From assembly GCA_046484845.1 (NCBI GenBank), contig JAWOIB010000068.1, forward strand, positions 1 to 37,116: a stretch of DNA of 37,116 bases, in the 5' to 3' direction. The translations under genes and the position numbers were made by a program. Positions 2,331-32,492 of this stretch are shown in pieces. The notes under the pieces were generated by a model. That model was given only the letters and a program-made list of their open reading frames with translations. It was not told where the DNA came from and made no database searches. The first letter of the stretch is position 1; the number at the start of each line of letters is the position of its first letter. Source of the DNA: a bacterium. Its GTDB lineage: Bacteria; Hydrothermota; Tepidihabitantia; Tepidihabitantales; Tepidihabitantaceae.

Positions 2331-2358
2331 TTGACCCTGCCGACCGGCCGGTTAAGAT
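2331..2358 (+). promoter_or_regulatory. Sigma70-like promoter of glgB; transcript probably leaderless
   Basis: TTGACC (2331-2336), a 16-nt spacer, TAAGAT (2353-2358). ATG 2365 lies only 6 nt after the -10 and has no SD. Confidence 0.35.
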
Positions 2359-21413: not shown

Positions 21414-21465
21414 GGGCAAGAATATGACTGCTGCCCGGCAAGTCAAGCCCCGTGGGACTGCCGGG

Positions 21466-24209: not shown

Positions 24210-24256
24210 GGTCTATCTTAGCCCGGGACCCCAGCTGCGTCAATTGCTCGAAAGAG

Positions 24257-27083: not shown

Positions 27084-27943
27084 TGCCCCGACCCGCCCAG
27101 CTGCAACAGCACCAGCGCCGCCACCACCAGCCCGACCCCGAACCAGCTGCGCGGCCGGAGCCGCTCCCGCCAGATCAGCGTCCCGGCCAGCGCCAGCAGC
27201 CCGACCTCCCCCGCCGCAATCACCGGGTACACCACCATCCCGGGCAGCACGGTCAGCGCCAGCACCAGGAAAAGGTAGTTGCCGAGGTTGGCCAGCCCGA
27301 GCAGCGAGCCCCAGCGCAGCGCCGCCATGTCCGGCCGCTGCCGGCGCGCAAAGCAGACCAGCGTGGTGACCAGGAACGCGGACACGAAAACCATCGCCTG
27401 GAACGGCAGGTGCTCCGCCTGCGGCAGTTCCTTGCGGAAGACCAGTGCGGCGGTCACCACCAGCCCGTCAACTAGGAACAGGGCGGCCAGCCAGAACGCC
27501 GCGACCCGGCCGGCACCGGCCCGGTCCGGCCGGCCCGCGTCGGACAGCACCAGCCCGAGCGCGGCCAGCGCCACCGCGCTCCCTGCCAACTCGAACGCGC
27601 TTGGCCGCTCTCGCCAGACCAGCGCCGCGAGCAGCACGGGTACCACGATCGCGGTCCGCATCGCCACCACCGACAGCGCCAGCCCGGCGGCCCGGATTGC
27701 CCGGGCCCAGACCAGCAGGCCGGCCACGAACACCACGCCGGTCGCCGCCCCGAGCAGCGCGGTCGGCACCGAGATGTGGTGCTGGCCGGCCAGGTACGCT
27801 CCAAAGAACGCCAGTAACGCCGCCGCCGCGTAGTTCACGCGGAGTAACGGCAGCAGCGGCATACGACGGCCCTCGGCCCGCCGCAGCACCAGCCCGAGCC
27901 CGACCGCGGACGCAACCTTCAGCAGCAGGAAATGCATCGCCAA
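27080..27943 (-). CDS. DMT/EamA-family transporter
   Basis: 287 aa, about 10 hydrophobic helices, two-fold internal repeat typical of EamA. Start is TTG 27943 or ATG 27937. Confidence 0.8.
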   Translation of the reverse strand: MAMHFLLLKVASAVGLGLVLRRAEGRRMPLLPLLRVNYAAAALLAFFGAYLAGQHHISVPTALLGAATGVVFVAGLLVWARAIRAAGLALSVVAMRTAIVVPVLLAALVWRERPSAFELAGSAVALAALGLVLSDAGRPDRAGAGRVAAFWLAALFLVDGLVVTAALVFRKELPQAEHLPFQAMVFVSAFLVTTLVCFARRQRPDMAALRWGSLLGLANLGNYLFLVLALTVLPGMVVYPVIAAGEVGLLALAGTLIWRERLRPRSWFGVGLVVAALVLLQLGGSGH

Positions 27944-27990
27944 GTATCCGCCCGGACGCTACCCGGTCAACCCCGGCGCGGCCCGGGCGA

Positions 27991-28018
27991 TTGACAGCGC
28001 CCCGCGGCCGGGTAATCT
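27991..28018 (+). promoter_or_regulatory. Sigma70-like promoter of the FmdE-domain gene, apparently leaderless
   Basis: TTGACA (27991-27996), a 16-nt spacer, TAATCT (28013-28018). GTG 28024 lies 5 nt after the -10. Confidence 0.4.
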
Positions 28019-28023
28019 CGTCC

Positions 28024-28494
28024 GTGGTCAATCTCCGCGCCTCCAGCGGCAGCGCTCAGCGCCTGCTCCAGCAGGCGACGTCCTTTCACGGCCATCTCGG
28101 GCCCTGGCTCGCGCTCGGGCTGCGGGCCGGTCTGTACGCCCGCCGCATCGTCAGCGCCGACCCGTTCCGGCTTGTCGCCCGCGCCCGCTGTCCGGCCCGT
28201 ACGCCCTACACCTGCCTCCTCGACGGTATCCAGTTCAGCTCCGGCTGCACCCTGGGCAAGGGCAACATCCACCATCTGCGCTCCGCCTGCCGCGGCCGCT
28301 CACGGCGCGCCGAGGTTAGTGTCGAGTTCCGGCGCCGCGACGGCACCGGGACCGGGCTCCGGCTGGAGCTCAGGCCCGAACTCTGGACCGAACTCCACCT
28401 CGCGCCGGTCGATACTGAGACGGCGGTCACCAGGCTCGGCCGCGACGTTTTCGGCCGCCCGCTGAACATGCTGTTCATCGAGACCCGTTCCTGA
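28024..28494 (+). CDS. FmdE-domain protein
   Basis: FHGHLGPWLALGLRAG and CLLDGIQFSSGCTLGKGNI match the FmdE signature. The ORF-track upstream extension (27445-28023) is Arg/Pro/Ala junk antisense to the DMT gene. Confidence 0.75.
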   Translation: MVNLRASSGSAQRLLQQATSFHGHLGPWLALGLRAGLYARRIVSADPFRLVARARCPARTPYTCLLDGIQFSSGCTLGKGNIHHLRSACRGRSRRAEVSVEFRRRDGTGTGLRLELRPELWTELHLAPVDTETAVTRLGRDVFGRPLNMLFIETRS

Positions 28495-29104: not shown

Positions 29105-29132
29105 TTGACTGACTGACGCGTTCCGGTAGTCT
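29105..29132 (+). promoter_or_regulatory. Sigma70-like promoter of gatD
   Basis: TTGACT (29105-29110), a 16-nt spacer, TAGTCT (29127-29132). ATG 29152 lies 19 nt downstream. Confidence 0.35.
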
Positions 29133-29151
29133 TGCGAACTGGCTCAAGCGT

Positions 29152-30546
29152 ATGACCACTGCCAACCCGACCTATAAGGGCTATCGCGACCCAGCTCTCG
29201 CCCGGCTCAAGGAGCTGGGCATCTCGGTCTGGTCCGATGTCGTGCTCAAGACTGCTCGCGGCACCTTCGAGGGCATCGTCCTGCCCCGCAGCGAGACCGA
29301 CGACGAGCAGCACATCGTGCTCAAGCTCCGGTCCGGGTACAACGTCGGGGTCCGGGCCGACTCGGTGACCGAGGCCCGGCAGGTGGGCTACAAAGAAGCC
29401 ATCTACAAGATTCCCGAGAGCGAGTTCCCGACCGACCCGGCCCGGCCGAACGTGACGCTGTTCGGGACCGGCGGGACGATCGCCTCGCGGCTCGACTACC
29501 GCACCGGCGCGGTCATCCCGGCGTTTACGCCCGGCGAGCTTTACGGCGCGGTGCCGGAGCTCGCCGACATCTGCAACTTGAAGACCGAGAAGCTGTTCGG
29601 AGTGTTCAGCGAGAACATGGGCCCGGAGCAGTACATCGTCACCGCGAAGGCGGTCGCCGCCGAAATCGAAAAGGGCGTCAAGGGCATCGTCATCGGCCAC
29701 GGCACCGACACGCTCCACCACACTGCCAGCATCCTGTCGTTCATGCTTCAGGACCTGCCGGTGCCGGTCGTGCTGGTCGGGTCCCAGCGCTCAAGCGACC
29801 GGCCTTCCTCGGACGCGGCCCTCAACCTGCGCAACGCGGTCAAGACCGCGGCCGAATGCGACATCGCCGAGGTGATGGTCTGCATGTTCGGCCCGACCTC
29901 GGACGATTACGCCCTGCTCCACCGCGGCACCCGGGTGCGCAAGATGCACTCGAGCTACCGCTCGACCTTCCGGACCATCGGCGACATCCCGCTGGCGATG
30001 GTCGCGCAGGACAAGGGCTTCACGCACCTGCGCGACGACTACAACCACCGGCGTGACGACCGGCGGCTGACGCTCAACACCGCCTTCGAGGAAAAGGTCT
30101 CCATCGTCTACTACTACCCGAACATGAAGCCGGACATCATCGAGGCGCTGGTCGACAACGGCTACAAGGGCATCATCATCGCCGGGACCGGTCTCGGCCA
30201 CGTCAACAAGCCGCTCTACCCGGCGCTGGCGAAATGCCGGGAAGCGGGCGTTGCGGTTTATATGACCGTCCAGACGCTCTGGGGCTACGTCCACATGCGG
30301 GTGTACGAGACCGGCCGGGACATGATCAAACTCGGCGTGGTCGAGGCCGAGAACATGCTGCCCGAGGTCGCCTACATGAAACTCTGCTGGGTGCTGGGCC
30401 AGACCACCGACCCGGCCCGGGTCCGCGAGCTGATGCTCACCCCGATTGCGGGCGAAATCACCGACCGCGAGCCGCCCAACGGCTACCTCATCTTCCAGGG
30501 CGGGATTCCCGAAGTCGAAGAGTTCGTGTCCCGGATTCTGCGCTAG
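29152..30546 (+). CDS. gatD: Glu-tRNA(Gln) amidotransferase subunit D, archaeal type
   Basis: 464 aa. An N-terminal GatD-specific domain is followed by an asparaginase-like core: FGTGGTIAS (catalytic Thr motif), IGHGTDTLHHTA, VLVGSQRS..RPSSDA. Confidence 0.9.
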   Translation: MTTANPTYKGYRDPALARLKELGISVWSDVVLKTARGTFEGIVLPRSETDDEQHIVLKLRSGYNVGVRADSVTEARQVGYKEAIYKIPESEFPTDPARPNVTLFGTGGTIASRLDYRTGAVIPAFTPGELYGAVPELADICNLKTEKLFGVFSENMGPEQYIVTAKAVAAEIEKGVKGIVIGHGTDTLHHTASILSFMLQDLPVPVVLVGSQRSSDRPSSDAALNLRNAVKTAAECDIAEVMVCMFGPTSDDYALLHRGTRVRKMHSSYRSTFRTIGDIPLAMVAQDKGFTHLRDDYNHRRDDRRLTLNTAFEEKVSIVYYYPNMKPDIIEALVDNGYKGIIIAGTGLGHVNKPLYPALAKCREAGVAVYMTVQTLWGYVHMRVYETGRDMIKLGVVEAENMLPEVAYMKLCWVLGQTTDPARVRELMLTPIAGEITDREPPNGYLIFQGGIPEVEEFVSRILR

Positions 30547-32456
30547 GCGCCCGCGGCCCTGCGCACCTCGCCCGCCACGTCCGCACCCCGCGCCCGGCCT
30601 GTCAGCCCGGCCATCGCCCGGCCCATCAGGAACCGCCAGCGCGCTTCCGGGTCGTGGGCGTGGTCCGGCGTCGCGGCCGCGACCACCGCGGCGACGATCG
30701 TCTCCAATCGCCTGCCGGTGACGACCTCGCCCAACCCGCGCTCCACCAGCAGCCGGTCGAGCGGCTCGCCCCGGCACAGCCCGCGCATCAGGTGGACGAT
30801 CGCCTCGCGGGCGAACTCGCCCCGCTGGTACCGCTCGAACAACCCGGCCAGCAGCTCGTCGGGCAACTGGTGAACCGGCAGACCCTGCCGGGCCAGCCAG
30901 CGCGACCACTGCTCGAGCGCCACCCCGGCCAGTTTCGGGTCCACCCCGGCGCTGCCGGTGAGCCGCTCGAACAGCGCGCGCCGGGGCGAGAAAACCAGGC
31001 TCTGGACCACGTCCTCGGGCAGGCCGAGACTGCGGAACCGCTCCTCGGTCGCCCAGGCCGGTTCCGGCAGCCCCTGCCGTAGCTCCTCCAGCTGCTCCCG
31101 GCTGATGACCGTGGGCGGCGAGTCGGTATCCGGGTACATCCGGTCCGGCCCGGGCAGGATCCGCTCGAACCCGGTGGTGCCGTCCGGGTGCGGCTGGCGG
31201 GTTTCGCTCGGCACCCCGTTCGAGGCATCGACCGCCCGGAGGTGAAGCTCGTTGACCGAGGTCCTGATGTCGTCGGCCGGTCCCCGGACGATTACCGCCT
31301 CGTCCCCGACTCCGCAGTTGACCGTTTCCCGGATGACGCGCCAGTCATCGTCGGTCAGGCCCTCGTCACCGCCGCCCCGGTAAATGATGTTGGGCAGCCG
31401 GTCGATGCAGGCGATGACCCGGACCCGCTCTGAAAACTCGTACCCGAGGTCGTGGCCGGGCTGGAGCGTCCGGTTGAGCAGGCCGGCGAACCCGGCCAGC
31501 CGGACTACCGCCAGCGACAGCCCCTCATCCGCGGCCTGGCGCAGGTGCGGGCTGCCGGTCTTCCGGGCCAGCCGGGCGGGCAGTTCGGCCGATTCGGGCT
31601 GGAGCCCCTCCGGGCTGACGCCCCGGGCGCGCAACTCGTCCCGGACCGCCAGCAACTGCTGGTGGCGAAACGCTTCGACCGCGACCAGCCGCCGGACCAG
31701 CCGGGTATCGGGCACGCCCTTGATCTCGACCCGGGTCGAGTCCTCGATGCTGACGTTGACATCCTGCCGCCCCGCGCCCGGCCCGGTCCGGACCTGGCCG
31801 GTCGAGCGCAGCAACCGCCAGAGCAGCCGGGCGCCCTCGCTCGCCTCTTCCGGGGTGTGCATCGTCGCGTCGGTCACCACCTCGACCAGCGGGAACCCGA
31901 GCCGGTCCCCCCGGAAAGTCACCTCGTGCCCGACGTCCGACACCTCGCGGCAGGCGTCCTCCTCCAGCCCGAGCTGGATGATGCCCAGCCGGCGGCCCCG
32001 AAAAGGCACCCAGCCCTCGACCCCGATGATCGCGGTGCGCTGGAACCCGGTCGGGATCGAGCCGTCCAGGTACTGCTTGCGCGAGATGTGCATCTCGTCC
32101 ACGATGTTCAGGTTCAGCAGCAGCCCGATGCGGAGCGCAATCGCCAGCGCCTCCTGGTTGATCGGGAACGGCGGGGTGTCGTCCATCTCGTAGGTGCAGT
32201 CGATGTCCGCGTAGAGCTGGTACCGCACGTTCTTCCGGGTCTTGAACTCCATCAGCGCGGTGCCGTCGTACTCGCCCAGCTCCGACAGCGTCGGCCGCAT
32301 ATGGCGCAGAACTTCGTAGTCCGGGGGCCGCGAGCGCAGCTCGGACCGGCAGCGGCAGAACAGCTTGTGCCGGGTCAGCAGCTGGTAATGGATTTCATGC
32401 CCGACCCGGAACCCGAGTCGCTGCCAGTCCAGGTCGAGGTCAACAGGCGTATTCAA
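30543..32456 (-). CDS. gatE: Glu-tRNA(Gln) amidotransferase subunit E, archaeal type
   Basis: 637 aa. GFRVGHEIHYQL..HKLFCRC, RKQYLDGSIPTGFQRTAIIG (the GatE-type motif rather than the GatB-type RKNYFYPD), an inserted domain, and a GatB/YqeY-like C-terminus. TTG start at 32456. Confidence 0.9.
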   Translation of the reverse strand: MNTPVDLDLDWQRLGFRVGHEIHYQLLTRHKLFCRCRSELRSRPPDYEVLRHMRPTLSELGEYDGTALMEFKTRKNVRYQLYADIDCTYEMDDTPPFPINQEALAIALRIGLLLNLNIVDEMHISRKQYLDGSIPTGFQRTAIIGVEGWVPFRGRRLGIIQLGLEEDACREVSDVGHEVTFRGDRLGFPLVEVVTDATMHTPEEASEGARLLWRLLRSTGQVRTGPGAGRQDVNVSIEDSTRVEIKGVPDTRLVRRLVAVEAFRHQQLLAVRDELRARGVSPEGLQPESAELPARLARKTGSPHLRQAADEGLSLAVVRLAGFAGLLNRTLQPGHDLGYEFSERVRVIACIDRLPNIIYRGGGDEGLTDDDWRVIRETVNCGVGDEAVIVRGPADDIRTSVNELHLRAVDASNGVPSETRQPHPDGTTGFERILPGPDRMYPDTDSPPTVISREQLEELRQGLPEPAWATEERFRSLGLPEDVVQSLVFSPRRALFERLTGSAGVDPKLAGVALEQWSRWLARQGLPVHQLPDELLAGLFERYQRGEFAREAIVHLMRGLCRGEPLDRLLVERGLGEVVTGRRLETIVAAVVAAATPDHAHDPEARWRFLMGRAMAGLTGRARGADVAGEVRRAAGA

Positions 32457-32464
32457 GGGCGATT

Positions 32465-32492
32465 ACACTATCTAAGGCAGGTGCGGAGTCAA
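32465..32492 (-). promoter_or_regulatory. Sigma70-like promoter of gatE, near-leaderless
   Basis: Minus strand: TTGACT (32492-32487), a 16-nt spacer, TAGTGT (32470-32465). The TTG start lies 8 nt after the -10. The hexamers nearly match those of gatD. Confidence 0.35.

Follow-up and report, generated by a model that had tools for sequence, protein, structure and literature searches.

An archaeal-type GatD/GatE amidotransferase pair encoded tail-to-tail in a WOR-3-related bacterium

The closest described relatives of the system considered here are the archaeal tRNA-dependent amidotransferase GatDE, solved from Methanothermobacter thermautotrophicus (2D6F) and Pyrococcus abyssi (1ZQ1), and the bacterial amidotransferase GatCAB (3IP4, 3KFU). 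In reviews published from 2008 to 2022 GatDE is presented as an archaeal signature protein or as exclusively archaeal, and this restriction is used in reasoning about the gene content of life's last universal common ancestor (LUCA) and about the absence of glutaminyl-tRNA synthetase (GlnRS) in Archaea. We analyzed a stretch of 37,116 nucleotides of bacterial DNA (contig JAWOIB010000068.1, in the following the window), which carries a gatD and a gatE gene facing each other tail-to-tail. We consider it likely that this locus encodes a functional heterodimeric tRNA-dependent amidotransferase GatDE of archaeal type, the bacterial host being a relative of candidate division WOR-3. A preliminary description of the window had pointed out that GatDE is generally regarded as an archaeal signature enzyme, and reviews of 2021–2022 indeed still describe it as exclusively archaeal; a full-text literature search returned no report of bacterial GatDE.

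The two genes and their common stop region are positioned as follows:
29152..30546, plus strand: gatD, 464 aa, ATG start
30543..32456, minus strand: gatE, 637 aa, TTG start
30543..30546, both strands: CTAG common to both stop codons (gatD TAG at 30544-30546, gatE TAG as the complement of 30543-30545; overlap 2 nt)

The convergent arrangement with stop codons overlapping in CTAG reads as it had been described. The same description had taken the 464-aa protein for GatD because of its architecture and the 637-aa protein for GatE rather than GatB; searches with GatD, GatE, asparaginase and GatB profiles upheld both assignments. GatD exceeded the cut-offs of two curated NCBI equivalog hidden Markov models (TIGR02153, 518 bits, cut-off 324; NF003217, 516 bits, cut-off 310) and contains the Pfam domains GatD_N (PF18195), Asparaginase (PF00710) and Asparaginase_C (PF17763), i.e. 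the expected N domain and asparaginase core. Its best matches in the PDB were 2d6f_A (9e-124) and 1zq1_A (6e-120). The motifs TGGTIAS and HGTDT were located from residues 106 and 183, respectively. T109 (in TGGT), T185 and D186 (in HGTDT) and K264 (in VRKMH) line up with residues of the archaeal enzymes, for which the catalytic role of the Thr nucleophile and the Thr-Asp-Lys triad has been described (PMC2330236), and all four are at least 90% conserved among 60 bacterial sequences. GatD further ends in a C-terminal tail of about 24 aa, REPPNGYLIFQGGIPEVEEF (window 30475-30543, residues 442-464). In the bacterial relatives described below this tail is conserved with the consensus REPxNGYLIFQGGIPEVEEF. 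Most archaeal GatD sequences have no counterpart of it; parts of it are seen in P0125, a sequence of the Asgard group Sigynarchaeota, and in an unlabelled neighbor (P0126).

GatE likewise exceeded the curated equivalog cut-offs (NF003107, 498 bits, cut-off 456; TIGR00134, 461 bits, cut-off 320), and all six GatB models failed on it with 66–147 bits against cut-offs of 315–680, the highest reaching 147 where 338 was required. The quoted motifs GHEIHYQL and DGSIPTGFQRTAIIG were found from residues 19 and 131. Best PDB matches were 1zq1_C (9e-101) and 2d6f_C (1e-97), compared with only about 1e-25 for GatB structures; for both GatD and GatE the archaeal crystal structures were aligned over the full length. 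An AlphaFold2 model of the protein (pLDDT 90, pTM 0.85) gave the same picture in Foldseek: 1zq1_C was matched with an E value of 9e-49 and a TM score of 0.84, the archaeal GatE structures (1zq1_C, 2d6f) together with TM scores of 0.79–0.84 and E values of 1e-44 to about 1e-48, and GatB with about 1e-25. Residues H23, E165 and E192, invariant in an alignment of 40 sequences, align to H15, E157 and E184, the Mg2+ ligands of M. thermautotrophicus GatE (PMC2330236).

The GatB_N profile (277 positions) is stretched over GatE residues 18-456, which indicates an insertion of about 160 aa. This region aligns without a break to 1zq1_C and 2d6f_C, and the AspRS-like insertion domain is marked by weak partial matches of the model to aspartyl-tRNA synthetase (AspRS). 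Insertion and tail of the window protein do not reach the Pfam models GAD and YqeY, both of which are matched by archaeal GatE; PF02637 (GatB/YqeY tail) covers residues 495-629. The tail motif is LMGRAMAGLTGRARG, compared with LMGQAMGRLRGRADG in the archaeal protein, and is of the G-R-A-x-G type and not Lys-rich. By the published definition a Gly/Ala motif marks the tail of GatE and the Lys-rich KxGKxK that of GatB (PMC2811023).

The pair lies among bacterial genes. On the same contig it is flanked by cargo of the type IX secretion system (T9SS) and an extracytoplasmic function (ECF) sigma pair on one side and by Hsp20, FtsY and SMC on the other. Directly upstream of gatE lies the gene of a Kelch protein that bears a T9SS Por_Secre_tail, the sigma factor is encoded together with a zf-HC2 anti-sigma factor, and further genes of the window code for transketolase, transaldolase, GlgB, MalQ, an M23 peptidase, a BamB-like and an FmdE-like protein. 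Neither gltX, glnS, asnS nor gatCAB was found among the genes of the 37-kb window, and gatDE has no biosynthetic neighbors there. In a genome relying on GatDE one would expect GlnRS to be missing, a non-discriminating GluRS to be encoded, and GatCAB to occur only if AsnRS is lacking. The G+C content is 0.65 for gatD and 0.71 for gatE at 0.69 for the window. At third codon positions (GC3) it amounts to 0.92 and 0.93, and seven other window genes range from 0.76 to 0.91, five of them at 0.90–0.91. The composition of gatDE is thus fully ameliorated to that of the host. On the gatE side, the window shows collinearity to a metagenome-assembled genome (MAG) of WOR-3 (DSBX01000219) at 75–86% nucleotide identity, and the host is a bacterium related to this candidate division. 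Bacterial flanks, host-like GC3 and WOR-3 synteny together make contamination, a chimera or recent acquisition very unlikely. What had been stated on gene context, on G+C agreement with the flanks and against contamination was thereby borne out.

What did not hold is the picture of an isolated bacterial case. A contig scan over one genome per GTDB species found at least 568 loci with GatE relatives; the best 80 are all from bacterial MAGs, at species level and from about ten phyla. Labels among these 80 comprise WOR-3, Aminicenantes, Phycisphaerae/Planctomycetes, Ignavibacteria/Melioribacteraceae, Zixibacteria, KSB1, Cloacimonetes, Calditrichota, Myxococcota, Caldisericia and Thermoanaerobaculia. 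Several complete MAG chromosomes carry members of the clade, e.g. CP070718.1 (Phycisphaerales) and OY820579.1; OY760517.1 (Melioribacteraceae), JAXGMQ010000001.1 (Caldisericia) and JAGNLW010000001.1 (Aminicenantes) are further complete or near-complete genomes with gatDE. Protein databases contain at least 8000 matches, the named ones being annotated as bacterial GatE or GatD (NCBI, IMG), in NCBI under these names and in JGI/IMG as 'glutamyl-tRNA(Gln) amidotransferase subunit D/E'. Across phyla, GatD is 60–76% identical to the window protein and GatE only 43–58%.

For a neighbor-joining tree we combined 61 bacterial GatD sequences with 121 full-length representatives of a library clustered at 50% identity, of which five archaeal ones bear labels. 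All 61 bacterial sequences fall into one clade (bootstrap 96/100) together with three further sequences, two of them on bacterial-looking contigs. The labelled sequences outside are all archaeal (Sigynarchaeota, Thermococcus, Bathyarchaeia, Ranarchaeia, Methanosarcina). Inside the clade phyla are mostly coherent, which argues for a long history of vertical descent and some transfer from phylum to phylum. The midpoint root lies between the bacterial clade and all other sequences, and the nearest labelled archaeal neighbor, the Asgard Sigynarchaeota sequence that shares part of the GatD tail, has a support of 28/100, so that the tree fixes neither a donor nor the direction of transfer. The proposed inter-domain transfer is plausible; its direction is not given by this tree. 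For GatE the archaeal sample, collected with a profile of two PDB sequences, covers Thermococcales and Methanothermobacter and is too narrow for a phylogeny or for comparing the loop described below across the archaeal domain.

One relative present only in Logan (P0122, 943 aa) joins an N-terminal GatE part (GatB_N, 24-304) to a complete GatD (491-937), which is 59% identical to the window GatD; the fusion could be genuine, or it could stem from a frameshift or from misassembly.

Gene order was compared over 84 distinct related loci. Most of them (56/84) show a tight gatE-gatD operon, and in another eight both genes keep strand and order at a distance of more than 300 nt. The order gatD-gatE was found at three loci, unlinked genes at six, and ten were too short to judge. 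Only a single further locus is convergent as in the window (L081/L082, GatE 79% identical). On L081 the stop codons also overlap by 2 nt, here as CTAA (TAA of gatE, TAG of gatD), and this pair stands on independent Logan contigs. The simplest history is that the convergent layout is derived and arose in this sub-lineage by inversion of gatD in place within a gatE-gatD operon. On the contig of the closest relative, a WOR-3 MAG (L001, GatE 81% identical), a convergent ORF of 469 aa (L001:11966-13375, minus strand), membrane-transporter-like in look, occupies the gatD position 3' of gatE. A generic terminator scan found no terminator-like structure at the gatD/gatE junction of the window, and folding z-scores of −0.5 to −2.1 gave no convincing hairpin there; the convergent transcripts probably overlap. 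When 926 neighboring ORFs from 82 of 85 loci (three duplicate contigs left out) were clustered with a view to partners such as gltX and gatCAB, only gatE and gatD recurred across phyla.

Both genes are preceded by a promoter-like site:
29105..29132, plus strand: gatD site TTGACT-16-TAGTCT, 19 nt 5' of the ATG
32465..32492, minus strand: gatE site TTGACT-16-TAGTGT, 8 nt 5' of the TTG

A generic scan with the E. coli consensus misses both sites, the −10 boxes agreeing with TATAAT at three of six positions. The pattern TTGAC-N16-18-TANNNT occurs nine times in the window compared with 0.36 expected, an enrichment of about 25-fold. Besides the gatE site the occurrences include:
2331-2358, plus strand
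21419-21446, minus strand
24215-24243, minus strand
27991-28018, plus strand

At the gatD site the −35 box and a TAG(T/C)CTTGCG stretch are kept in L081 while the spacer is divergent; at the gatE site the −35 and −10 boxes and the start context CC(C/T)TTGAA are kept in both L001 and L081, again with a divergent spacer. This conservation is consistent with both sites probably being real promoters, and their class is the ordinary sigma-70-type of the organism. It had been correctly noticed that the hexamers of the two genes are nearly identical, and co-regulation had been concluded from it. Since both sites are members of a generic class of nine, their likeness is no evidence of dedicated co-regulation, and this second part of the claim is weak. 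Several sites end 5–8 nt before a start codon (GlgB ATG 2365, ATG 24209 of a 586-aa ORF, gatE TTG 32456), and leaderless mRNAs seem to be common in this WOR-3-like organism. The −10 box of gatE, 8 nt from the conserved TTG, likewise predicts a leaderless or near-leaderless message, and the gatE mRNA is probably of this kind with translation beginning at TTG. Just 3' of the site at 27991-28018 we noted an FmdE-family ORF (28027-28494, plus strand; Pfam PF02663, 63 bits), nested in a longer spurious high-GC ORF (27445..28494).

Among the relatives we observed variant gatE loci. On three independent contigs a 75-nt tRNA with the anticodon UUA, which would read the stop codon UAA, is located 70–120 nt 5' of gatE on the same strand:
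L074:328-402, plus strand: tRNA(UUA)
L088:1232-1306, minus strand: tRNA(UUA)
L089:3196-3270, minus strand: tRNA(UUA)

These tRNAs score 46–50 bits with the Rfam tRNA model (cut-off 29) and show U37, G73, a mismatch of A1 with A72 and a CCA end that is encoded in the gene. In acceptor end and discriminator they are similar to the tRNA-Gln of bacteria. The copies vary by G-C to G-U changes in the stems with an invariant anticodon, the GatE proteins of the three contigs are 84–96% identical among themselves, and the tRNA has a promoter of its own, TTGACC-17-TATTGT. On a soil contig (L090) we found a 3' tRNA fragment that has the same T arm but a UUG loop. Full reassignment of UAA is not indicated, as 2 of 12 ORFs on the tRNA(UUA) contigs still end with TAA. 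In this lineage gatE is followed not by gatD but by a radical S-adenosylmethionine (SAM)/SPASM gene of 334–337 aa (L074:2403-3416, plus strand; L089:147-1151, minus strand), the start of which overlaps the gatE stop; gatD is not present on these short contigs. Two divergent GatD-like proteins (P0165 and P0123) branch at the base of the bacterial clade and have lost TGGT and HGTDT, P0165 also the Lys. On its contig (L087, Logan SRR27730023) the genes follow each other as gatE, SQHop-cyclase-like, radical SAM, P0165 and AsnA. These proteins may have been co-opted for a non-canonical use.

By homology to 2D6F and 1ZQ1, a GatD dimer of the window enzyme would bind two GatE subunits (alpha2-beta2). 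GatD would hydrolyse Gln or Asn, GatE would phosphorylate mischarged Glu-tRNA(Gln) at the gamma-carboxyl of its Glu, and ammonia would reach GatE through an intersubunit tunnel, forming Gln-tRNA(Gln). After inversion of gatD in place the converging genes would each be transcribed from an ordinary sigma-70-type promoter of their own. The enzyme would have an essential role in translation.

Several points weigh against a GatDE working on tRNA(Gln) in this host as it does in Archaea. Bacterial tRNA(Gln) normally has a U1-A72 pair. Archaeal GatDE requires the A1-U72 pair of tRNA(Gln) (PMC2330236); the D-loop is also recognised. The GatE loop beside the 1:72 pair of the tRNA reads TGQVRTGPGAGRQD in the window and TGxVR(T/R)GxG(A/S)xRQD as the consensus of 207 bacterial sequences, compared with (K)VKRGLGTIRQD in the two solved archaeal enzymes; as it differs from these, it may hint at a changed tRNA specificity. 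The window contains no tRNA gene, and no tRNA-Gln was called in 82 related loci, where the sole Gln-like tRNA was the UUA tRNA of L074. A TTG start on a leaderless mRNA is unusual for a highly expressed essential gene, and the same applies to convergent promoters without a terminator between them. Finally, homology of L001, the closest relative, to the window stops at the gatE stop, and gatD is not adjacent there. The loop also bears on an alternative according to which the enzyme has a broadened or shifted specificity, or has replaced GatCAB and reads bacterial-type U1-A72 tRNA(Gln). It would fit with the consistent difference of the bacterial loops, with the conserved tail specific to bacterial GatD, and with the very strong conservation of GatD across phyla (60–76% identity), which suggests an essential role. 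We nevertheless regard this alternative as unlikely: GatE has kept the AspRS-like insertion, modelled in Archaea to clash with non-discriminating AspRS (PMC2330236), as well as the tail motif of GatE type, to which a part in the rejection of Asp-tRNA(Asn) is ascribed (PMC2811023), and the contrast in the loop is one with two archaeal sequences only.

A role outside translation, in which a carboxylate, tRNA-bound or other, would be amidated by the pair in a biosynthetic pathway, is suggested by related gatE genes that have other partners, such as the operon of tRNA(UUA), gatE and radical SAM/SPASM or, on L087, gatE together with a radical SAM gene, AsnA and a GatD-like protein that is catalytically degenerate. 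For the window pair it is highly improbable, as its catalytic motifs are canonical, it groups with the mainstream clade of gatE-gatD operons, biosynthetic neighbors are missing, and the only partner conserved across phyla is the other subunit. An archaeal fragment joined to bacterial DNA by assembly or binning would agree with the description of GatDE as exclusively archaeal in the literature, and its probability is close to negligible: bacterial genes stand on both sides in one contig, GC3 equals that of host genes, an independent WOR-3 MAG shows collinearity with the flank of gatE, the same convergent pair was recovered on independent Logan contigs (L081), and the clade is present on complete bacterial MAG chromosomes. 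Identity to archaeal proteins is also low, 36–37% for GatE and about 41–52% for GatD. Contamination and chimerism were therefore rejected, and a functional GatDE of the host, presumably acting on Glu-tRNA(Gln), is the reading that we prefer.

The statement that GatDE is found only in Archaea does not agree with the bacterial context of this locus or with at least 80 bacterial genomes that carry close relatives. The locus itself is ordinary within its clade; the clade is under-reported and at odds with current reviews. The preliminary description had named, as something that would refute it, that GatDE proves to be common and already characterised in this phylum. Common it is; the kind of enzyme is well known and bacterial copies have been annotated automatically, and the clade appears to have been neither discussed nor characterised. 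Bacterial carriers represent natural experiments: is GatCAB kept, does tRNA(Gln) have A1-U72 or U1-A72, and how did the enzyme adapt after a change of domain? When pathways are reconstructed from MAGs of Fibrobacteres-Chlorobi-Bacteroidetes (FCB) or Planctomycetes-Verrucomicrobia-Chlamydiae (PVC) type, gatDE should be sought before the lack of gatCAB is scored as a gap. We tentatively raise the possibility that one old bacterial GatDE lineage replaced GatCAB for Gln-tRNA(Gln) formation in many groups of FCB, PVC, Acidobacteriota and Myxococcota, with recognition re-tuned to bacterial-type tRNA(Gln) through remodelling of the GatE loop at the 1:72 pair and through the new GatD tail. If this were true, the label 'archaeal signature' would be wrong, and two arguments would have to be revisited: that Archaea lack GlnRS because GatDE and tRNA(Gln) co-evolved, and what is inferred on the gene content of LUCA.

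Compared with archaeal GatDE of M. thermautotrophicus and P. abyssi, the window system shares the two-subunit architecture, a GatD with N domain and asparaginase core including the Thr/Thr-Asp-Lys residues, and a GatE with cradle, His/Glu/Glu Mg2+ ligands, AspRS-like insertion, helical domain and, in its YqeY-like tail, the motif G-x-A-x-G. It differs in its bacterial host, in identities of 36–37% to the two GatE proteins compared (Methanothermobacter, Pyrococcus) and about 41–52% to the archaeal GatD sequences aligned, in the conserved GatD tail and the altered 1:72 loop of GatE, and in the convergent genes with overlapping stops. GatB of bacterial GatCAB (3IP4, 3KFU), a subunit marked by a 3-10 turn and the Lys-rich tail motif, is a paralog of GatE and agrees with it in cradle fold and in chemistry (Foldseek about 1e-25, common region residues 95-275); the window GatE has the additional insertion of about 160 aa and no Lys-rich tail motif, and its glutaminase partner is the asparaginase-type GatD instead of the amidase GatA with GatC. 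A stand-alone type I L-asparaginase (AnsA) resembles the GatD core, for which TIGR00519 gave 387 bits (cut-off 260) and solved asparaginases were matched with about 1e-40. GatD is set apart from AnsA by its GatD_N domain, its higher scores with the GatD equivalogs and the clade-wide pairing with gatE. Within the bacterial GatDE clade known from MAGs the window pair is a member, sharing GatD tail and GatE loop consensus, with GatE 81% identical to WOR-3 SpSt-1182 and 43–58% to other phyla, and GatD at 60–76%. Most members keep the tight gatE-gatD operon, whereas the window and one relative have gatD in inverted orientation, with a promoter of its own.

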